From: Rhizobium sp. Q54
GTDB taxonomy: Bacteria; Pseudomonadota; Alphaproteobacteria; UBA2966; CAIVPW01
Assembly (NCBI GenBank): GCA_945904955.1
Contig: CAMDPO010000011.1
Coordinates: 259-64,258, forward strand
DNA length: 64,000 bases
Reading direction: 5' to 3'
In this document: in pieces, positions 11,036 to 32,574 of the stretch
How positions within the stretch are numbered: the stretch's first letter is position 1
How the letters are laid out: the number at the start of each line of letters is the position of its first letter
The notes under the pieces: model-generated
The model's database searches: none
Seen by the model: only the letters and a program-made list of their open reading frames with translations
Told to the model about the DNA's origin: nothing
Made by a program: the position numbers and the translations under genes

Positions 11036-12079
11036 ATGCGAGGAGTTCCTTTGCGCAGGTTTGCCGGGTTCGCCGTCGTGGCTTCTGCCCTCATCGCGGC
11101 AGGTCCCGCCGCTGCCCAGGGCCCGGCCCCGGGCGAAGTCAACGTGTACTCGGCGCGCCAGGAGGCGTTGATCAAGCCGCAGCTCGATGCGTTCGCCAAA
11201 GCGACCGGCATCCGCGTCAACCTCATCACCGCCGGCGAAGACGCCATCATCGAGCGCATGCGCGCCGAGGCCCGCAACAGCCCCGCCGACGTTCTCCTGA
11301 CCGTCGACGTTGCCCGCCTGATCCGCGCCACCGACGCCGGCCTGCTGAAGCCGATCCGCTCCGAGGAGTTGGAGAAGGCGATCCCGTCTCAGTATCGCGA
11401 AAAGGACGGCCGCTGGTTCGCCCTCGGCCTGCGCGCGCGGGTCTTCTACTACAACCCCGAGAAGGTCAACCCGGCCGAGCTTTCGACCTACGAGGCGCTC
11501 GCCGATCCCAAGTGGCGCGGCCGCGTGTGCATGCGTTCGTCCAGCGCCACCTACAACCAGTCGCTGCTGGCGTCGTTGATCGCCCACAAAGGCGCGGTCG
11601 CGGCCGAGGCGTGGGCGCGCGGCATCGTCGCCAACATGGCGCGTCCGCCGATGGGCGGCGACCGCGACCAGATTTCCGGCGTGGCTTCCGGCCAGTGCGA
11701 CATCGGAGTCGCGAACACCTACTACTTCGTCCAGATGCAGAACGGCACCGATGCCGAGAAGGCGGCGGCCGGCAAGGTCAAACCGTTCTTCCCGGCCCAG
11801 CCCGGCGGCGGCGCTCACGTGAACGTGTCGGGCGGTGGCGTCGCCACCAACGCGCCGAACGCCGCCAACGCCCAGAAGCTGCTGGAGTTCCTGGCCAGCC
11901 CCGAGGCGCAGAAGATCTACGCCGAGGTCGTCTTCGAGTATCCGGTGCGCGCCGGCGTAGCCGTAGCGCCGCAGCTCCAGGCGATCGGCACCCTCAACCC
12001 CGACACCCTCGAGCTGTCTCTGCTCGCCGCCCATCAGGCCGAAACGATCCGCATCTTCGACCGGGTCGGCTGGAAGTGA
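11036..12079 (+). CDS. Fe(3+) ABC transporter substrate-binding protein
   Basis: Signal peptide plus FbpA/AfuA-like periplasmic binding fold (VNVYSARQ...YYNPEKV). Confidence 0.8.
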   Translation: MRGVPLRRFAGFAVVASALIAAGPAAAQGPAPGEVNVYSARQEALIKPQLDAFAKATGIRVNLITAGEDAIIERMRAEARNSPADVLLTVDVARLIRATDAGLLKPIRSEELEKAIPSQYREKDGRWFALGLRARVFYYNPEKVNPAELSTYEALADPKWRGRVCMRSSSATYNQSLLASLIAHKGAVAAEAWARGIVANMARPPMGGDRDQISGVASGQCDIGVANTYYFVQMQNGTDAEKAAAGKVKPFFPAQPGGGAHVNVSGGGVATNAPNAANAQKLLEFLASPEAQKIYAEVVFEYPVRAGVAVAPQLQAIGTLNPDTLELSLLAAHQAETIRIFDRVGWK

Positions 12080-12164
12080 TTCGGTCCTGAGTTGCTCCCT
12101 CCCTCACCGACCGCAATCGGGGCTGGCCTGCCATGGCCGGCCCCGAGCGCGTTCGTGAGCTGTC

Positions 12165-13841
12165 ATGACAAGCCTCGCTGACACCGGACTGCAGGTCGCG
12201 AAGCGGCGCGCGCGCCTGGACGGCTGGACCGTTGCTGCGCTGCTCGTCGCCGCGCTGGCGATGCTCCCTGTGGCAGTGGTCGCCGCATCGATCTTCGTCC
12301 CGAGTGGCGACGCCTGGTCGCACCTCGCCGGCACGGTGCTGGTCGACTACGTCGTCAACACCTTGTGGCTGGTGGCCGGCGTCGCGGCGCTGACCTTCAT
12401 CGTCGGTGTCTCGACCGCGTGGCTGGTGACGATGTGCGCGTTCCCCGGCCGGCGCATCCTGGAGTGGGCGCTGGTGCTGCCCCTCGCCATGCCGGCCTAC
12501 GCGGTGGCCTACACGTACGCCGAAGTGCTCGACTACTCCGGCAGCGTGCAGTCGTGGCTGCGCGCCACCTTCGGCTGGGGCCGGGGCGACTACTGGTTCC
12601 CCGAGGTGCGCTCGGTCCCCGGCGCCGTCCTCATGCTCGGCCTCGTGCTGTACCCCTACGTGTACATGCTGGCCCGCGCCGCGTTCCTGTCCCAGTCCGT
12701 GTGCCTGTTGGAGATCAGCCGCACGTTGGGTTCCGGGCCGTGGCACACATTCTTGCGCGTCGGCCTGCCGATGGCGCGCCCAGCCATTGTCACCGGCATC
12801 GTGCTGGCACTGATGGAGACCATCGGCGACTACGGCGTCGTCCAGCACTTCTCGGTGAGTACGTTCTCGACGGGCATCTTTCGCACCTGGTACGGCCTCG
12901 GCAACCTGACCGCAGCCACCCAGCTCGCCGCGCTGCTGCTCGGAGTCGTGTTTCTGCTGCTGGCAATCGAGCGGCTGGGACGGGGAGGGGCCGTGTATCA
13001 CCACACCACCACCCGCTACCGTCCGCTGCCGGCCTTCGTGCTGCGCGGCGCCAGGGCGTGGGGTGCGATCGCCGCGTGCGTCCTGCCGCTCCTGCTCGGT
13101 TTCCTGGTGCCCGCCGGACTGTTGGCGGCGTGGGCGGCGCAGACGGCGCCGCGGGTCGTCGATGACGGCTTCTGGCGTGACGCCCTCAACAGCGTGACGG
13201 TCGCGGCGCTCGCAGCGGTGCTCGCCGTCGCCGTCGCGCTCCTGCTCGCCTTCGCCGCTCGCCTGCGCCCAGGCCCGGTCACCACCTGGGCCACGCGCCT
13301 CTCGACGCTGGGCTATGCGGTGCCTGGTGCTGTCGTTGCGGTCGGCGTGATGATCCCGTTCGGCTGGTTCGACAACGCGGTCGATAGCTGGATGCGCGAC
13401 CACGTCGGCATCTCCACGGGCCTGCTGCTGTCGGGCACGCTGGCGGCGATGCTGTTCTGCTATGTGGTGCGGTTCCTGGCGATCTCGTTCAACGCGGTCG
13501 AATCGGGCATGAGCAAGATCACCCCCAACATGGATCGCGCCGCGCGCGCGCTCGGCGCCGGTCCGTGGGCGGCCCTGCGCCGCATCCACGCGCCGCTTCT
13601 GCGCGGCAGCCTGCTCACCGCGGCGGTGCTGGTCTTCGTCGACACGATGAAGGAGTTGCCGGCGACCCTGATCCTGCGCCCGTTCAACTTCGACACCCTG
13701 GCGATCCGCACCTACGAGCTTGCCTCCGACGAGCGCCTCGCCGACGCCTCGACCTACGCGCTGTCGATCGTCCTGTTCGGGCTGCTGCCCGTCGTCCTAT
13801 TGTCGGCCGCCATTGCACGCTCCCGCCCAGGTCACAGCTAA
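12165..13841 (+). CDS. iron ABC transporter permease (duplicated two-domain FbpB-type)
   Basis: 558 aa with two repeated 6-TM permease halves carrying EAA-like loops. Confidence 0.8.
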   Translation: MTSLADTGLQVAKRRARLDGWTVAALLVAALAMLPVAVVAASIFVPSGDAWSHLAGTVLVDYVVNTLWLVAGVAALTFIVGVSTAWLVTMCAFPGRRILEWALVLPLAMPAYAVAYTYAEVLDYSGSVQSWLRATFGWGRGDYWFPEVRSVPGAVLMLGLVLYPYVYMLARAAFLSQSVCLLEISRTLGSGPWHTFLRVGLPMARPAIVTGIVLALMETIGDYGVVQHFSVSTFSTGIFRTWYGLGNLTAATQLAALLLGVVFLLLAIERLGRGGAVYHHTTTRYRPLPAFVLRGARAWGAIAACVLPLLLGFLVPAGLLAAWAAQTAPRVVDDGFWRDALNSVTVAALAAVLAVAVALLLAFAARLRPGPVTTWATRLSTLGYAVPGAVVAVGVMIPFGWFDNAVDSWMRDHVGISTGLLLSGTLAAMLFCYVVRFLAISFNAVESGMSKITPNMDRAARALGAGPWAALRRIHAPLLRGSLLTAAVLVFVDTMKELPATLILRPFNFDTLAIRTYELASDERLADASTYALSIVLFGLLPVVLLSAAIARSRPGHS

Positions 13842-25280: not shown

Positions 25281-25418
25281 ATGAACAAGTCCAAGTGGTC
25301 CGTGGTCATCTTCCTCGTCGTTGCGGTCCTCTTGGTCGCCAGCGCCGTCGGCGTCACCCATTACCTCGCAGGCACTGTCATCCTGCCGGACGAGCAAGCC
25401 GACCCGCACGCGCCCTAA
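25281..25418 (+). CDS. hypothetical small single-pass membrane protein (45 aa)
   Basis: ATG preceded by GTG, one hydrophobic helix (VVIFLVVAVLLVASAVGV), TAA stop. Sits between a REP element and the PQQ dehydrogenase. Not in the >=60-aa ORF track. Confidence 0.3.
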   Translation: MNKSKWSVVIFLVVAVLLVASAVGVTHYLAGTVILPDEQADPHAP

Positions 25419-25548
25419 GGTCCGCGACCTAGCATCGCAACGTCCGGTTGTGGTTTTCCCGCCGCCGCTTGTTGAATGCTAGACTTCGTTGTCTCGGGTT
25501 GGGAGACCTGGGTGGGAGTAGCGCGTTCGCAAGGCGCGCGCAGGGAGT

Positions 25549-27360
25549 TTGGGCATGGTCAGCCGCGGCAGGACGTGGCGGCGCGGAGTCATCTGCGCGG
25601 CGGCATTGGCTGTCTGTGCCTCGTCGCATCCGGCAGCGGCGCGTGACGTCACCGACACGCGCCTCGTCAACGCCGATGCCGAGCCCGACAACTGGCTGCA
25701 TCACCACGCGAACTACGCCGGCCATCGCTTCGGCAACCTGACCCAGATCAACGCCGGCAACGTCCGCACCCTCAAGCTCGCAGCGATGGTCCTGCTCGCC
25801 GGCCAGACCCGCGCCGAGGGCGGCCGCCAGGGTATGACGCGGCTCGAGGGCACGCCGCTCGCCGAAGACGGGTTTGTCTACGTCACCGACGGTTGGGGCT
25901 CGCTCTACAAGCTCGACTTGCGCAGCGGCAGCCGCGCCGACTTCGTCTGGAAGATGGACCCGCGCCTCGACAAGGTGTGGGCCGGCGACGTCGCCTGCTG
26001 CGGTGTCAACAACCGCGGCGCCGCGCTGTGGAAGGACCAGGTCATCTCCATCGCCTTGGATGGCCGCCTGTTCGCGGTCCACAAAGACTCCGGTCAGATC
26101 ACCTGGGAGCGCAAGGTCGCCGATCCCGGCGTCGCCGAGACGCTCACCACCGCGCCCCTCGTCATCCGCGACATGGCAATCGTCGGCCCCGCCGGCGCCG
26201 AGTACGGCATCCGCGGCTGGTTGGAGGCCACCGACCTCGTCAACGGCACGCCCATCTGGCGCACCTACACGATCCCGGCCAAAGGTGAGAGGGGTAACGC
26301 GACCTGGGCGGACACCTACAACGCCTGGGAAACCGGCGGCGGCTCCATCTGGGTGACCGGCACCTACGATCCGCAGATCAACCTGATGTACTGGGGCACC
26401 GGCAATCCGGCGCCGCAGATCGACGCCGAGTATCGCCCGGGCGACAACCTCTACACCGACAGCCTGCTGGCGATGGATCCCAACACCGGCGCCATCAAGT
26501 GGTTCTTCCAGTACACGCCCAACGATCCGTTCGATTACGACGAGGTCGCCGAGCATCCGCTCATCGACCTCGACATTGGCGGCACCATGCGCCGGCTGGT
26601 CACCCACGCCGGCCGCAACGGATTCTTCTACGGCTTCGATCGCGTTTCCGGCGAGTTCCTCTACGGCCGCCAGTACCCGAACCTCGTCACCTGGACCAAC
26701 GGCCTCGATCCCAAGACCGGGCGCCCGCTCGCCTACAACCCGAACACCGCGGTGCAGCAATACAACCTCGGCACGGTGCCGCGCCGCGGCGTCGTCGGCG
26801 TGTTCTGCCCGGCGCTCGCCGGCGGCAAGAACTGGGAGCCGTCGTCCTACAGCCGCACCCTGCGCACGGTGTTCACGCCGTCCACCGAAGGCTGCTCGGC
26901 CTACGTCGCCGAGAACGACGGCCACTTCGAGGGCAAGCTCGGCGGCACCTTTCGGAAGCGCGCCATGTGGGACGGCCGCGCCCCGGCGCCGCCCGACACG
27001 CCGCTGCCGCTGGCGCAGACCGCGTTCTCCCTCAACGCCATCGACCCGCGCACCGGCGAGGTGCGCTTCAAGCTGATGCAGGACGTCAAGACCTGGGGCG
27101 TGCTCGCCACTGCCGGCGGCATCGTGTTCGGCGGCAACCAACTCGGCGACGTCTTCGCCCTGGACGCACGCACCCTCAACACCCTGTGGACCTTCAACGT
27201 CGGCACCCCCATCCAGGCGCCACCCATGACCTTCGCGGTCGGCGGCCGCCAGTACGTCGCCATCATGGCCGGCGGCGCCGCCGGCGCCGCCCAGCGCGTC
27301 CTGCGCAACTCCACGGCGTTCTTCACGCCATCCAACTACGTCTTCTTTTTCGCGCTATAA
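25549..27360 (+). CDS. PQQ-dependent dehydrogenase, methanol/ethanol family (8-bladed propeller), paralog 1
   Basis: Signal peptide, vicinal disulfide CC (DVACCGVNNRG), tryptophan-docking repeats, active-site FDYDE. 603 aa. Confidence 0.8.
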   Translation: MGMVSRGRTWRRGVICAAALAVCASSHPAAARDVTDTRLVNADAEPDNWLHHHANYAGHRFGNLTQINAGNVRTLKLAAMVLLAGQTRAEGGRQGMTRLEGTPLAEDGFVYVTDGWGSLYKLDLRSGSRADFVWKMDPRLDKVWAGDVACCGVNNRGAALWKDQVISIALDGRLFAVHKDSGQITWERKVADPGVAETLTTAPLVIRDMAIVGPAGAEYGIRGWLEATDLVNGTPIWRTYTIPAKGERGNATWADTYNAWETGGGSIWVTGTYDPQINLMYWGTGNPAPQIDAEYRPGDNLYTDSLLAMDPNTGAIKWFFQYTPNDPFDYDEVAEHPLIDLDIGGTMRRLVTHAGRNGFFYGFDRVSGEFLYGRQYPNLVTWTNGLDPKTGRPLAYNPNTAVQQYNLGTVPRRGVVGVFCPALAGGKNWEPSSYSRTLRTVFTPSTEGCSAYVAENDGHFEGKLGGTFRKRAMWDGRAPAPPDTPLPLAQTAFSLNAIDPRTGEVRFKLMQDVKTWGVLATAGGIVFGGNQLGDVFALDARTLNTLWTFNVGTPIQAPPMTFAVGGRQYVAIMAGGAAGAAQRVLRNSTAFFTPSNYVFFFAL

Positions 27361-27369
27361 CAGATCGTT

Positions 27370-27398
27370 GTCATTGCGAGCGAAGCGAAGCAATCCAG
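27370..27398. repeat. REP element family B (GTCATTGCGAGCGAAGCGAAGCAATCCAG)
   Basis: Perfect hairpin with GCGAAGCGAAGC loop region. Matches 53806-53834 and the arms of 20635-20745. Confidence 0.6.
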
Positions 27399-27400
27399 TG

Positions 27401-28000
27401 ATGGCTAGATCATTCGCCTTCGGTGCGGCTGTGGCCGCGGCGCTGTGGATCGCTCCCGCGTCCGCCAACCACGAACCCGACTACGCCGAGCGCGTGCGCT
27501 ACTGCGCGACCCTGTCGTACGCCCTGGTCGAATCGATCATCACTTTCCGGGAAAGCATCGACGTCGCCATCGACGCGACCGGCGTGCTGCCCAACGCCAC
27601 CGACCAACGCATCATGGACGTCGTCGCGCGCGCCACCAGCGCCGGGGCCGGACGCATGTTCGACAATCTCAGTGAATGCTTGATCGCGCTGGGCGACGAC
27701 CTCGAGCGCGAGGAGAACGCCAACCTCGCTGCCCAGGGCATCGCCGTCGAGATCGACTTCGCCATCGAGGAAGTCGGCGCGGTGTTCACCACCATCGAGG
27801 AAGGCGAGGGCACCCTGCGCCGCAAGTGGGGCGCCGCCGGTGCCGCCCAGGCCGCGAGCGCCCTGCAGACGTTCCGCGACTTCGCCCTCGACCTCGAAGG
27901 CTACCTGGAAGAGGCCCGCGATTTCGTCGCCGTCCTCGTCGAGCGCACCGCGCCGGAAGGCGTCGTGCCGCCGCCCGACACCCCGCTGCGACCGCTCTAG
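27401..28000 (+). CDS. hypothetical periplasmic protein (signal peptide, predicted all-helical)
   Basis: Start reassigned to ATG after the REP element (MARSFAFGAAVAAALWIAPASA signal). No recognisable motifs. Sits between the two PQQ dehydrogenases. Confidence 0.45.
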   Translation: MARSFAFGAAVAAALWIAPASANHEPDYAERVRYCATLSYALVESIITFRESIDVAIDATGVLPNATDQRIMDVVARATSAGAGRMFDNLSECLIALGDDLEREENANLAAQGIAVEIDFAIEEVGAVFTTIEEGEGTLRRKWGAAGAAQAASALQTFRDFALDLEGYLEEARDFVAVLVERTAPEGVVPPPDTPLRPL

Positions 28001-28078
28001 CGCCACTTCGCCTTCCCGGCACGGGGGGAGGGCAGGGTGTGAGGAGCAACCAACGCGCGCGGCAGCGCGCCCTTGCGT

Positions 28079-28882
28079 CTACCGCGCTGTCCCCGCTACC
28101 TCGCCGTCCGGCATCACCGTGTCGACAATCGTCGCACCGGCAAACACCGTGTCGATCGTCGTCGCGCCCTGTAGCCGCGCGTTGGTGAGATTGGTGTCCA
28201 TGAGATTCGCGCCCGTCAGGTCCGCCCCATAGAGGTCCGCGTCCGTCAGGTTGGCGCCCTCCAGATTGGTGCCGCGCATCGTCGCGAACGGCAGGTCGGC
28301 GACTTCCAGGTTGGCGCCGCGCATGTCGAGGCGCCCGAGGTTGACCTGATCGAACCGCGATCCGCCCAAGTACGCGTTGCGGAACACCGTGCCGCCCACC
28401 GCCGCGTTGCGAAAGTCGGCGTCGATGAACTTGGCGCCTTCGAACGTCGCGCGCTGCAGCCGCGCCCGAATCAGAATCGTCTCGACGCCGTACGCCCCGC
28501 CGAAGTTCGCGCCGGTGCCATCCGCCAGGTACAGGTTGGCGCGCGTCAGCGTCGCCTCGCTCAGGTCGGCGCCGCGCACGTTGGCGCGCGACAGGTTGGC
28601 GCCCTCGAGGTCCGCGCCCTTCAGGTTGGCGCCTTCCAGGTTGGCGAGATAGAGGTTCGCCGCACCCAGGATGGCGCGCTCCAGGTTGGCGCCCTTCAGC
28701 TGGCGCCGCTGCAGGTCGGCGCCCTCCAGCGCACATCCGGCGCAATCATTGCTGTGCCCTGACAGGAACGCCGCCTCGCGCTCGCCAACCGGAGGAGTGG
28801 GTGGGGCCGGGGCCTGCGCAACGGCAGAGCCTGCGGCGACCGCCGCCGCGAGAGCACATCCAAGGAATCGAGCCGGCGCCAT
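28079..28882 (-). CDS. pentapeptide repeat protein with N-terminal signal peptide (periplasmic)
   Basis: About 40 tandem A(D/N)LxG/ANLxx pentapeptides. Start reassigned to MAPARFLGCALAAAVAAGSAVA (signal-like), 64 bp divergent from PQQ dehydrogenase 2. Confidence 0.7.
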   Translation of the reverse strand: MAPARFLGCALAAAVAAGSAVAQAPAPPTPPVGEREAAFLSGHSNDCAGCALEGADLQRRQLKGANLERAILGAANLYLANLEGANLKGADLEGANLSRANVRGADLSEATLTRANLYLADGTGANFGGAYGVETILIRARLQRATFEGAKFIDADFRNAAVGGTVFRNAYLGGSRFDQVNLGRLDMRGANLEVADLPFATMRGTNLEGANLTDADLYGADLTGANLMDTNLTNARLQGATTIDTVFAGATIVDTVMPDGEVAGTAR

Positions 28883-28946
28883 CGCTCCATCGTACCGGGC
28901 GGCCCCTGTTTGACCCACCCCCAGGCGGATGAAATAGTCGCTCGCA

Positions 28947-30773
28947 ATGACCCGGGCATTTCTCACCTCGACGGTTGCCGCTTTGGCGCTCGCCTTCGCG
29001 TTGCCCGCCACTGCCCGCGACATGACCCAGGCGCGCCTTGAGAATGCCCACACCGAGCCCGACAACTGGCTGGTGGTGAACGGAACCTATGCCGCGCAGC
29101 GCTACGCCAACCTTGGCCAGATCACCACGGCCAACATCCGGGATCTCACGCCGCGCATGATGGTGCTGCTCGGCGGCCAGATCCCGGCCCAGGGCGGCCG
29201 CTATGCCGTGACGCGCCTTGAAGGCACGCCGCTTGCCGAGGACGGATTCCTGTTCGTCTCCGATGGCTGGGGCGCCATCTACAAGATCGACGTGCGCTCC
29301 GGCACGCGCGCCGACTTCGTCTGGAAGTATGAGCCGCAGGTCGACAAGGTGTGGGCCGGCGACGTCGCCTGTTGTGGCATCAACAACCGCGGCGTCGGTC
29401 TGTGGAAGGACAGCGTCATCTCCGTCTCCCTCGACGGCCGCCTGCACCGCATCCACAAGGAGTCGGGGCAGGTCATCTGGGAGCGCAAGATCTACGACCC
29501 CGGCATCGCCGAGACGCTCACCGTGGCGCCGCTCGTCATCCGCGACCTCGCCATCGTCGGCTCGGCCGGCGGCGAGTACGGCATCCGTGGCTCCCTCGAC
29601 GCCACCGATCTCAATACCGGCAAGCAGGTTTGGCGCACCTTTACGGCCGGCGGCAATGACCGCGACCCCAACGAGAAGGCCAAGGCCACCTGGCTCGACA
29701 CCTACAACGCGTGGGAATCCGGCGGCGGCTCGATCTGGCAGACCGGCACCTTCGATCCGAGGCTCAACCTCACGTACTGGGGCACCGGCAATGCCGGGCC
29801 CGACTACGATCAGGAGTACCGTCCCGGCGACAACCTCTACGTCGCCTCGCTGCTGGCGCTGAATCCCGACGACGGCTTCATCAAGTGGTTCTTCCAATAC
29901 ACGCCGGGTGATCCGTTCGACTTCGACGAGGTCGCCGAGCACCCGCTCATCGACATCGAGGGCCGCACCCTCGTCGTGCACGCCGCGCGCAATGGCCACT
30001 TCTACGGCTTCGATCGTGCCACCGGCGCGTTCCAGTACGGCAAGCAGTATCCGACCGTGGTGACCTGGTCGGGCGGCATCGATCCGAAGACCGGACGTCC
30101 GATGACCTACGTGCCGGGTGCGCCGCTGCAAAAGTACGCGCCGGGCACGGTCGCCGACCGCGGCGGCGCCGTCGGCATGTTCTGTCCGGCCATCACCGGC
30201 GGCAAGAATTGGGAGCCGACGTCCTACAACCCGCAGCTCCGCACGATCTTCGTCACCTCGAATGAGGGCTGTACGGGCATGCGCACGGTGACGCGCCTCA
30301 ACCACTTCGAGGGCAAGCTCGACGGCACCAGCAAGAAGCGCTCGGCGTGGACCGGCGGCGCCACGCTCAACAACCAGCAGATGCTGGAGCGCGGCGTTAC
30401 CGACACGCGTCCCGTCACGATGGCCGGCAACTCGCTCAACGCCATCGACGTCACCAACGGTGAGGTGAAGACCAAGATCATCGTCAAGGCGAAGCTTTGG
30501 GGCACGGTCTCCACCGCCGGCGGCCTGACCTTCGGCTGCGACCAGTTCGGCGACCTGATGGCCTACGACAGCACCAACCTCGCGCCCTTGTGGTCCTTCA
30601 ACGTGGGGAGTCCGTGCGGCGCGCCGCCGATGTCGTACGCGTTCGGCGGCAAGCAGTACGTTGCCGTGCTGGTCGGCTACTCGCCGCCCAACACCCAAAC
30701 CGCCACCCAGGGCGGCCGCCCCGGCGCCAACCTGATGACGCCGTCCAACTTCCTCGTCGTGTTCGGGCTCTAG
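28947..30773 (+). CDS. PQQ-dependent dehydrogenase, methanol/ethanol family, paralog 2
   Basis: About 65% identical to paralog 1. Signal peptide, ACCGINNRG, active-site FDFDE. 608 aa. Confidence 0.8.
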   Translation: MTRAFLTSTVAALALAFALPATARDMTQARLENAHTEPDNWLVVNGTYAAQRYANLGQITTANIRDLTPRMMVLLGGQIPAQGGRYAVTRLEGTPLAEDGFLFVSDGWGAIYKIDVRSGTRADFVWKYEPQVDKVWAGDVACCGINNRGVGLWKDSVISVSLDGRLHRIHKESGQVIWERKIYDPGIAETLTVAPLVIRDLAIVGSAGGEYGIRGSLDATDLNTGKQVWRTFTAGGNDRDPNEKAKATWLDTYNAWESGGGSIWQTGTFDPRLNLTYWGTGNAGPDYDQEYRPGDNLYVASLLALNPDDGFIKWFFQYTPGDPFDFDEVAEHPLIDIEGRTLVVHAARNGHFYGFDRATGAFQYGKQYPTVVTWSGGIDPKTGRPMTYVPGAPLQKYAPGTVADRGGAVGMFCPAITGGKNWEPTSYNPQLRTIFVTSNEGCTGMRTVTRLNHFEGKLDGTSKKRSAWTGGATLNNQQMLERGVTDTRPVTMAGNSLNAIDVTNGEVKTKIIVKAKLWGTVSTAGGLTFGCDQFGDLMAYDSTNLAPLWSFNVGSPCGAPPMSYAFGGKQYVAVLVGYSPPNTQTATQGGRPGANLMTPSNFLVVFGL

Positions 30774-30869
30774 GGAGCTACGACCCGTTCCTTCCCAGCA
30801 GGCGCAGCAGGACTAGCGGGAGGTTTGGCGCGCAGGCGTACCCCGCCCAGAAGCGCGTAGAATGCACGC

Positions 30870-31652
30870 ATGTGCAGGGTTTTCTCGTACGCCTCCGTAC
30901 TCTTCGTTGCGCTGATCGCGGCGTCCGCCTTCGCGCAGGATGCCGCCACGCCGCCGCTCGTGCGTGCGCCGGATGCCGCCCGTCCCGTTGGCGATCTGCG
31001 CGAGCTTGCGGTAGGGAAGCACGCGCGCGAACTTCCGCTCGAAGGCTACTACGCCTTCGCCTGCGGCTCGAACGGCGGCACGCCCTTGGAGCAGCTCGAC
31101 GACTGGACTGGATTCGCCACCTGCGCGCGCGATCGCGCCACCGACCTCTACGAAGTCTACGTCGAGTACGATGACGAGGGCGAATACGCCGCGCGCATGC
31201 TGCTCGAGTTGTTCGGCGAGCAGGACGGCCGCCTCGGCCTGCGCAAGTATTACGGCACCAAGGTCGCCGGCCACCCGGTCGTGCTCTCGGTGCTGTTCGA
31301 CGAACGCGGCACCGCCCAGGCGATCCGCGCCGTCACCGACCAGCGCGCCGACCTCGACTACCGCCGCAACGCCTACCTGCTGCGCGTGCCCCTGATGAAT
31401 GCCTTCGGCGCCGAAGGGTGGGGCTGCCAGAATCCGCCGCTAGCGAACGGCGAAACGCCCATCGGTGAGTTCTTCGTGAAGATGCGCTGCGAGAAGATCG
31501 CTCCCAGCGGCCGCCGCATGGTGGTCGAGGCGCACCTCTACCGGAAGCCAGGCCAGACCGGCTACGACCGCACCGGCACCACGCTCGAGGGCGACTTCTT
31601 CAGCCAGGGCCGCTGGGAGATTTGGAACCCGGAATACCGGCCCGCGCCCTAG
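30870..31652 (+). CDS. hypothetical secreted protein (260 aa, 4 Cys)
   Basis: Signal peptide MCRVFSYASVLFVALIAASAFA. No recognisable domain. Codon usage fits the host. Confidence 0.45.
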   Translation: MCRVFSYASVLFVALIAASAFAQDAATPPLVRAPDAARPVGDLRELAVGKHARELPLEGYYAFACGSNGGTPLEQLDDWTGFATCARDRATDLYEVYVEYDDEGEYAARMLLELFGEQDGRLGLRKYYGTKVAGHPVVLSVLFDERGTAQAIRAVTDQRADLDYRRNAYLLRVPLMNAFGAEGWGCQNPPLANGETPIGEFFVKMRCEKIAPSGRRMVVEAHLYRKPGQTGYDRTGTTLEGDFFSQGRWEIWNPEYRPAP

Positions 31653-31818: not shown

Positions 31819-32097
31819 ATGGACGTGACGAATGCCGTAGATGCCGCGAAGACTTGGTTCAGGGCGACGATGAAAGACGAGAAAATTGAAAATCTCGGCC
31901 TCGAAGAGGTTGAGTTCAACCCTGTGGATCGCGTCTGGCAGATAACTCTGGGCTTTAGCCGACCGTGGAACAGCGTCCGCGACGCAGTCACTACGATCAC
32001 CGGGGAGGCACTCCCCAAGCGGACCTATCGGGTGATCACGCTGCAGGACCATGACGCAAAGGTTCTCGCGATGAAGCGTCGCGAGGCAGCAGAGTAA
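31819..32097 (+). CDS. hypothetical 92-aa protein (putative cognate partner/antitoxin of downstream PIN protein)
   Basis: Lower-GC codon usage. TAA stop directly abuts the GTG start of the PIN gene. Confidence 0.4.
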   Translation: MDVTNAVDAAKTWFRATMKDEKIENLGLEEVEFNPVDRVWQITLGFSRPWNSVRDAVTTITGEALPKRTYRVITLQDHDAKVLAMKRREAAE

Positions 32098-32574
32098 GTG
32101 TCGAAGGTCGTCGCCCTCGACGCCAATCTCGTCGTACTGCTCGTGGTTGGCCTCGCCAACCCGGCGTGGATATCCACCCACAAGCGCCTTCGAGCGTACG
32201 GCACACGAGACTACGATCTCTTGGTGCGACTACTGCAGAACGCCCGAGAAGTAGTGGTAACCCCCAGCGTCCTGACGGAAGCGTCCAACCTGGTCTCCCA
32301 AATCGAAGGCGACCGCAGGACGAAGGTCATGAAAGAGTTCCGCGCCTTCATTGGGAGGACGAAAGAGCTATTCCAGGAAAGCGCGTCAGTTTCGTTAAGA
32401 AAAGAGTTCGTCCGCTTGGGATTGTGCGACTGCGCCCTTCTTGAGTTGAGCAAGGACGACACGGTGGTCCTTTCTGCAGATCTCGATCTGTATTTGGCGG
32501 CCAGCCGCGCCGGGTACACTGCGGTCAACTTTACTCATGCGAGAGTTGAAGCTGGAATTCTGGACCGACCTTAG
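32098..32574 (+). CDS. PIN domain-containing protein (VapC-like putative ribonuclease)
   Basis: Conserved acidic positions consistent with a PIN fold (ALDANLVV D8; TPSVLTEASN; CDCALLE; SADLDL). 158 aa. Lower GC than surroundings. Confidence 0.5.
   Translation: MSKVVALDANLVVLLVVGLANPAWISTHKRLRAYGTRDYDLLVRLLQNAREVVVTPSVLTEASNLVSQIEGDRRTKVMKEFRAFIGRTKELFQESASVSLRKEFVRLGLCDCALLELSKDDTVVLSADLDLYLAASRAGYTAVNFTHARVEAGILDRP

Follow-up and report, generated by a model that had tools for sequence, protein, structure and literature searches.

A tandem pair of probably lanthanide-dependent quinoprotein dehydrogenases and a widespread putative accessory gene pair in an alphaproteobacterial genome

The window analysed here is a stretch of 64,000 nucleotides from Rhizobium sp. 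Q54 (assembly GCA_945904955.1, contig CAMDPO010000011.1, positions 259 to 64,258), and our subject is a block of genes for secreted proteins within it, built around two tandem, paralogous dehydrogenases of the pyrroloquinoline quinone (PQQ) type. Both PQQ1 (25555–27360, plus strand) and PQQ2 (28947–30773, plus strand) are predicted periplasmic type-I quinoprotein dehydrogenases, scoring 170 and 157 bits, respectively, against PF01011 (cutoff 26.7 bits). The 1586 bp between them hold the gene for u199, a 199-aa secreted acidic protein with a predicted four-helix bundle (27401–28000, plus strand), and, on the minus strand, the gene for penta, a PedD-like secreted pentapeptide-repeat beta-helix protein of 267 aa (28079–28882; PF00805, 157 bits), which is divergent from PQQ2 across a spacer of exactly 64 bp. 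Downstream of PQQ2 lies u260, the gene for a 260-aa secreted, Cys-rich alpha/beta protein (30870–31652, plus strand). Neither u199 nor u260 has any match in Pfam or NCBIfam. We read the locus as a working periplasmic oxidation module in which two probably lanthanide-dependent dehydrogenases are served by u260 and penta as dedicated accessory proteins, with the partner cytochrome encoded outside the locus; for this reading as a whole we estimate a probability of roughly two in three. Its basis is the gene content, the catalytic residues, the purifying selection, the gene linkage and the absence of a c-type cytochrome from the 64 kb.

An earlier reading, made from the sequence alone, had placed six open reading frames (ORFs) here, and all six are present, at most a few codons off the positions it gave. 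Its figures of 1.6 kb between the dehydrogenase genes and of 64 bp for the divergent spacer also held. The paralogues, taken then to be about 65% identical, share 58% identity over 589 residues (BLASTP). The PQQ1 frame had been drawn correctly, but its start at 25549 is better moved to the ATG at 25555, just after an AGGGAG Shine-Dalgarno sequence; the product is then identical to database protein P0001 (601 aa). All five larger proteins carry a plausible Sec signal peptide, judged by reading the sequences, with a basic N-terminus, a hydrophobic core and an AxA-type cleavage site. The public call for PQQ2 (583 aa) starts at 29022, 3′ of the signal peptide, which the ATG at 28947 includes, and the public call for penta (310 aa) begins far upstream of the ATG at 28882 that yields both a signal peptide and the 64-bp spacer.

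Both dehydrogenases align end to end with TIGR03075 (positions 3–527 of 530), at 468.2 bits for PQQ1 and 433.4 bits for PQQ2 against a cutoff of 480.05. When PQQ1 is aligned with PedH (6zcv), the segments ACCGVNNRG, GAEYG, GTGNP, FDYDE and RNGFFY match the corresponding PedH residues; the vicinal Cys-Cys pair, the metal-binding Glu and Asn, the catalytic Asp and the Arg that stacks on or binds PQQ are kept in both paralogues. The D-x-D of lanthanide enzymes appears as DYD in PQQ1 and DFD in PQQ2, at the aligned position of DFD in PedH. Of the 120 homologue clusters closest in sequence (49–100% identity to PQQ1, median length 591 aa), 119 have D-x-D and one has E-x-D; the vicinal Cys pair is present in 117 and CxxCH in none. 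All relatives tested at related loci likewise have D-x-D except L011_a, the first of two tandem dehydrogenases at that locus (L011:5925-7853), in which E-Y-D replaces D-Y-D at the catalytic and metal-binding position. Ratios of nonsynonymous to synonymous substitution (dN/dS), calculated with the orthologues in a related metagenome-assembled genome (MAG; L007), are 0.12 for PQQ1 and 0.09 for PQQ2 compared with 0.08 for secD, which indicates that both genes are under purifying selection and functional.

These data bear on two alternatives. The propellers could be non-catalytic or PQQ-free 'empty' quinoproteins, which would explain why no acceptor is encoded nearby; both proteins do fall below the TIGR03075 cutoff, and the second-best NCBIfam match is the acido-empty-quinoprotein family TIGR04528, at 360 and 301 bits. 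Those scores, however, are far under the 650-bit cutoff of that family, the Cys-Cys pair, the metal-binding Glu, Asn and Asp, the extra Asp and the PQQ-binding Arg are all retained, dN/dS is close to 0.1, and a Skermanella protein from the same clade is a methanol/ethanol-family dehydrogenase in RefSeq and has its own cytochrome c. We consider empty propellers very improbable. Alternatively, the enzymes could depend on calcium despite their D-x-D, since metal use is heterogeneous inside some PQQ-dependent alcohol dehydrogenase (PQQ-ADH) families according to PMC11996626. The same source has the extra Asp accompanying lanthanide coordination in every enzyme assayed so far, and the near-universal D-x-D among the closest clusters, aligned to the lanthanide-binding Asp of PedH, points the same way. 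Calcium dependence is thus unlikely, and from their active-site sequences PQQ1 and PQQ2 are probably lanthanide-dependent.

The clade to which they belong is, by sequence comparison, large, discrete, uncharacterised and mostly alphaproteobacterial. More than 7000 database clusters match PQQ1 at E < 1e-30, and identity within the clade is about 50% or more. Scores against the best solved relatives are 204–278 bits for PQQ1 and 176–255 bits for PQQ2 (1kv9, 278/255; PedH, 263/231; XoxF, about 210–240; ExaA and MxaF, about 180–217), compared with 650–1400 bits in-clade, and identity to any solved enzyme reaches about 35–38% at most. The suggestion that the two dehydrogenases lie outside the characterised clades is borne out by this gap in both scores and identities; placement relative to XoxF1-5, MxaF, ExaA/PedE and PedH comes from these measures rather than from a tree on the Keltjens reference set. 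Across 72,556 plasmids a single Skermanella protein reaches 50.7% identity and all others are at 35% or lower. In a neighbour-joining tree, PQQ1-type and PQQ2-type genes separate, and the tandem pair of L011 arises from an independent duplication.

The stretch stems from an ENA metagenome contig (ERZ27280329), and its relatives are alphaproteobacterial MAGs; a scan of genome contigs found only four loci, all from close relatives. In these relatives the block always sits between secDF-DUF498 and UrateOxN-SQS-trmFO, with varying content: the window's layout with two dehydrogenases recurs in L007 and L008; L006 has a PQQ1-type gene, then penta on the minus strand, then u260; and L010 has a single PQQ2-type gene, a minus-strand cytochrome c gene, u260 and a minus-strand penta. 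L010 also has, between its dehydrogenase and cytochrome c genes, a 38-aa stretch (L010:12096-12197) that matches the PQQ2 C-terminus (residues 540–577, 50% identity) and would appear to be a remnant of a tandem dehydrogenase copy since lost.

Such a constant site raises the question whether penta, u260 and u199 are simply syntenic passengers between housekeeping genes, functionally unlinked to the dehydrogenases; vertical synteny alone could explain their conservation within the lineage, and u199 is indeed lineage-restricted and fast-evolving. The wider distribution of u260 and penta argues strongly against this. A metagenome scan with an alignment of u260 recovered at least 562 relatives, from which 80 loci were taken for neighbourhood tallies. 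An in-clade PQQ-ADH gene lies upstream of u260 on the same strand within 2.5 kb in 28 of the 29 loci with enough upstream DNA, and a penta orthologue lies within 6 kb downstream of u260 in 34 of the 45 loci with enough downstream DNA, directly adjacent in 20. The same genes stand beside in-clade dehydrogenases at many chromosomal sites with unrelated surroundings, and also on a plasmid. L011, at another chromosomal site (an ALAD/rhomboid neighbourhood), has PQQ-PQQ-u260 followed by penta on the minus strand; L012 has PQQ, a minus-strand cytochrome c gene and u260; Devosia has a gene for a Rieske protein exported by the twin-arginine translocation (TAT) route divergent from PQQ-u260-penta, with u260 and penta overlapping by 4 bp; L020 has Rieske, p130, PQQ, a minus-strand staphylococcal nuclease (SNase) gene, u260 and penta. 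In Skermanella, both on the chromosome and on a plasmid, the order is PQQ, cytochrome c, a u260-like gene, a 135-aa gene and an Fe-S/molybdopterin oxidoreductase, and a JGI contig (P0180) carries a TonB receptor, a MoxY-like two-component system, cytochrome c, PQQ, u260, a 254-aa minus-strand gene and PqqD. The window fits this cluster order, with PQQ2 and u260 on the same strand and a penta of the CxxC...MPDG kind nearby, divergent from PQQ2.

The passenger explanation is accordingly largely refuted for u260 and penta, leaving it a very small probability overall, while for u199 it stands. Judged by this linkage, u260 and penta belong to the same system as the dehydrogenases and travel with the clade through unrelated contexts; they accompany it in many soil and freshwater bacteria. 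Conservation of the neighbouring ORFs, named in advance as a test that could refute the sequence-only reading, proved wide for u260 and penta and confined to close relatives for u199 and for a 45-aa ORF upstream of PQQ1. Tandem paralogues, part of the makeup that had been set apart from described loci, recur in this type of cluster, with tandem in-clade dehydrogenases in 7 of the 80 loci. In 7 of 22 loci penta is divergent from a further dehydrogenase. The example from L040, the one checked against solved structures, is PedH-like, with 412 bits to 6zcv. Like five similar genes, it has DYD and an identity of about 35% to PQQ1.

Several other features of these neighbourhoods deserve mention. Staphylococcal-nuclease-like genes (PF00565) adjoin u260 in three unrelated loci (L018:8684-9184, L020:6475-6987 and the P0180 contig), and HbpS-like genes (PF03928) occur in two. 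Some loci have two or three u260 paralogues around penta (L021:5141-7744, L060:8001-16173), and in L021 a six-bladed GSDH-type PQQ enzyme is encoded nearby.

Of the accessory proteins, u260 has four invariant Cys residues and a dN/dS of 0.15, and a search for structural relatives found none that was convincing; on sequence criteria it is the founding member of an unannotated, PQQ-ADH-associated protein family. Orthologues of penta, recovered by synteny and by tblastn on the fetched loci, have signal peptides in common; an FLxG...CxxC cap marks the N-terminus in 32/39 and MP[DN]G the C-terminus in 41/46, and dN/dS for penta is 0.20. Homology searches with penta (a set of 5.8 billion proteins, plasmid tblastn and PDB sequences) returned generic repeat proteins, with no orthologues or names, and there is no pentapeptide gene at the plasmid-borne PQQ-ADH loci examined in Stutzerimonas, Burkholderia, Azoarcus and Azospirillum. 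The third protein, u199, appears from its distribution to be a lineage-specific addition: it has only 14 relatives among 1.84 billion representatives and a dN/dS of 0.54. Its predicted four-helix bundle (predicted local distance difference test, pLDDT, 88.4) matches generic bundles only, which gave no recognisable fold or function, and a b562-like haem carrier was rejected for want of any supporting motif. In L003/L009 the u199 homologue 3′ of the PQQ1 orthologue (11832–12482) is broken by an in-frame stop, with the same sequence in four independent contigs, and is followed by a second, diverged u199 paralogue (L003/L009:12514-13098).

The sequence-only reading had drawn attention to the lack of CxxCH motifs in the small and uncharacterised ORFs, and this is true of the locus and, for practical purposes, of the window as a whole. 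Within all 64 kb, CxxCH occurs in only two stop-to-stop frames of at least 40 aa, one of them UvrA and the other a non-coding frame (G+C content at third codon positions, 0.42), which makes the missing c-type cytochrome real; tblastn of the window with five cluster-type cytochromes from relatives likewise found nothing, not even a gene relic. As a trait of the system as a whole, however, the missing cytochrome does not survive comparison. A homologous single-haem cytochrome c, with extra conserved Cys and no NCBIfam equivalog, is encoded beside u260 in L010 (12351–12803, at the same secDF...trmFO site), L012, L018, Skermanella and 12 metagenome loci. In L010, which is the closest of the single-copy relatives at this chromosomal site, it lies between the dehydrogenase and u260. 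A TAT-exported Rieske protein with a 130-aa partner is found instead in nine metagenome loci and in Devosia, L020 and L021, and neither partner is present in at least four metagenome loci (with at least 1.5 kb visible upstream of the PQQ gene), in L011 and in the lineage of the window. The TAT-Rieske protein may accept electrons from quinoprotein dehydrogenases in place of a cytochrome.

Examples of Devosia-type loci in which the Rieske gene, of about 204 codons and usually accompanied by a gene for a 130-aa secreted partner, replaces cytochrome c in position are L015:4312-4926 (minus strand), L020:3281-3919 and L024:5226-5837; further Rieske-type loci are L037, L039, L048, L055, L077, L085, L091, L102 and L105. 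On a plasmid of Azoarcus sp. KH32C, a Rieske gene directly precedes a PQQ-ADH gene of a different clade.

With three partner states in one family, and with at least four loci plus L011 having neither partner, the loss of the cytochrome in the window could be functional rather than a relocation, the acceptor being some non-cytochrome protein or the u260/penta pair itself acting as a thiol-based relay. The CxxC in 32 of 39 penta homologues and the four invariant Cys of u260 would suit such a relay. Invariant Cys residues in Sec-exported proteins are nevertheless most simply explained as structural disulfides, and u260 and penta coexist with cytochrome c or Rieske in most loci, so the pair does not replace them. 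We know of no PQQ-ADH that uses a thiol relay, and orphan quinoprotein ADH genes served by cytochromes encoded elsewhere are common. A non-cytochrome route in this lineage therefore seems improbable to us, and a cytochrome encoded outside the locus remains the preferred outlet.

Taken together, we propose that PQQ1 and PQQ2 would oxidise an alcohol (or an aldehyde or polyol) in the periplasm, with substrate electrons reducing PQQ and leaving via a soluble periplasmic acceptor. In relatives this acceptor would be the cluster-encoded single-haem cytochrome c or the TAT-Rieske protein; in the window lineage it is most likely a c-type cytochrome encoded elsewhere in the genome, because the L010-type cluster cytochrome is absent here. 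Both u260 and penta, being Sec-exported and having no CxxCH, would act on the periplasmic enzyme, whether by maturing it, by loading its cofactor or metal, by handling disulfides or by docking a partner, and would not be electron carriers themselves. A more specific form of this idea, in which u260 and penta are a dedicated maturation or docking pair (for lanthanide or PQQ loading or for the vicinal disulfide) serving the whole clade, with interchangeable outlets in cytochrome c, TAT-Rieske or a housekeeping carrier, is tentative, and we would put it at distinctly less than even odds. In all of this the lanthanide use, the class of substrate, the role of the accessory pair and the electron acceptor are deduced from gene and protein comparison.

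Some observations weigh against the module as proposed. Both dehydrogenases score slightly under the curated TIGR03075 cutoff. Substrate and metal are predictions from residues, and D-x-D is an indicator of lanthanide use, not proof of it. The accessory role of u260 and penta is read from their linkage to the enzyme, and in L018 and L021 both genes accompany a redox protein with no eight-bladed PQQ-ADH within 7 kb, so that the partner of u260 need not be this enzyme alone. The likeness of penta to PedD is one of gene position and repeat type. Finally, the placement of the cytochrome elsewhere is an assumption, made with 64 kb of the genome in view.

Around these genes lie some smaller features. 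A 45-aa ORF with a single predicted transmembrane segment and a C-terminal DPHAP (25281–25418, plus strand) has no match in Pfam or NCBIfam; a counterpart with 56% identity lies upstream of the PQQ1 orthologue in L007, L003 has two tandem copies, and L008, L006 and L010 have none. It is uncertain whether it is part of the system. Alignment of relatives revealed a conserved non-coding motif, CCGCCGCTTGTTGAATGCTAGACTT (25462–25486, plus strand), about 70 nt 5′ of PQQ1, which is kept in the window, L007 and L003 and in part in L008, and which from its position and conservation is possibly a promoter or operator. A scan of the locus, this motif included, against Rfam gave no matches. The 64-bp divergent spacer holds a weak sigma-70-like promoter match (28910–28938, plus strand; TTGACC-17-AATAGT with an extended TG), one such site being found where 0.6 would be expected; promoter and terminator scans of the locus as a whole were at background. 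Between u260 and a glutathione peroxidase gene, two ORFs set back to back (31819–32574; 92 and 158 aa) match nothing in Pfam. They are missing from the equivalent site of L007, a 94%-identical relative, and local G+C content falls to about 0.65, so that a small insertion of recent date seems likely. The remaining genes of the window are housekeeping genes: tatABC, serS, secDF, trmFO, uvrA, ssb, putA, gyrA, queA and tgt.

To our knowledge, no lanthanide enzymes have been described other than the lanthanide-dependent PQQ dehydrogenases, and for the uncharacterised PQQ-ADH families we know of almost nothing on accessory proteins or electron acceptors. Three things here appear to be new: the u260 family, the close tie of this family to both a PedD-like protein and the dehydrogenase clade, and the three alternative redox contexts. 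Since many lanthanide-motif families are already recognised, PQQ1 and PQQ2 alone add members to a known group of enzymes, and the missing cytochrome is best seen as a lineage variant rather than the sign of a new enzyme type. The locus is somewhat more than an orphan dehydrogenase in that it exposes a widespread, unannotated accessory pair, with u260 as a new protein family for annotation. Through the cluster, what PedD does, a long-standing question, also becomes open to experiment in cultivable carriers such as Devosia and Skermanella, and the pairing of one enzyme clade with cytochrome c, Rieske or nothing bears on how such enzymes are linked to respiration. If u260 and penta do form a maturation or docking pair with interchangeable outlets, the function of PedD would become approachable for the first time, and a quinoprotein ADH coupled to a Rieske protein would have come to light.

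Set against known systems, the locus was first held to match no described MDH, XoxF, ExaA or PedH locus. The mismatch with mxa and xox clusters stands, but for ExaA and PedH the claim is only partly right, because the pairing of a pentapeptide gene with an ADH gene was already known: in Pseudomonas, the secreted pentapeptide-repeat proteins PedD (PP_2673) and PA1981 are encoded directly upstream of pedE and exaA (PMC12997753; PMC7188995). PedD abundance tracks PedE in the lanthanum response, and truncation of pedD impairs growth on short-chain alcohols (PMC12997753; PMC7188995). The window resembles the ped and exa loci in placing such a gene directly beside a type-I quinoprotein ADH gene (64 bp away and divergent), in the D-x-D that PQQ1 and PQQ2 share with the lanthanide-type paralogue PedH, and through several related metagenome loci with penta divergent from a further ADH, which in the case checked is PedH-like at 412 bits to 6zcv. 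The window differs in having no PedF/ExaB cytochrome c550, PedG binding protein, SoxYZ-like or SoxH-like relay proteins, PedI aldehyde dehydrogenase, PedS/R regulators or pqq genes, and PQQ1 and PQQ2 reach only 263 and 231 bits against PedH. Furthermore, the single-haem cytochrome c of the relatives is of another family than PedF/ExaB, and the ped gene table (PMC12997753) holds no counterpart of u260, a comparison made by table and not by direct search.

With the xoxFGJ and mxaFJGI systems the shared features are the eight-bladed PQQ propeller and the vicinal disulfide, together with D-x-D as in XoxF. The differences are the scores of 182–240 bits against XoxF and MxaF structures, compared with at least 650 in-clade, and the absence from the window of cytochrome cL (MxaG/XoxG) and of MxaJ/XoxJ; no ORF resembling the small subunit MxaI stood out in the window, where no search aimed at MxaI was made. 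The best match among solved structures is to the catalytic propeller of ADH IIB of P. putida HK5 (1kv9; 278/255 bits), a type II quinohemoprotein listed as Keltjens 'type 4' in the supplement of PMC8561711. Unlike ADH IIB, PQQ1 and PQQ2 have no C-terminal haem c domain, and they carry D-x-D where ADH IIB has D-F-T. Many uncharacterised lanthanide-motif PQQ-ADH families have been catalogued (Keltjens 2014, types 3–9; PMC11996626; bioRxiv 10.64898/2026.07.10.737718), and the clade described here is almost certainly one of these or a neighbour to them. The catalogued families are, like PQQ1 and PQQ2, predicted lanthanide-dependent eight-bladed PQQ dehydrogenases, and they are abundant in soil and water metagenomes. 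The survey sections consulted classify enzymes and do not describe the pairing of u260 with penta or the alternatives of cytochrome c, Rieske or neither.

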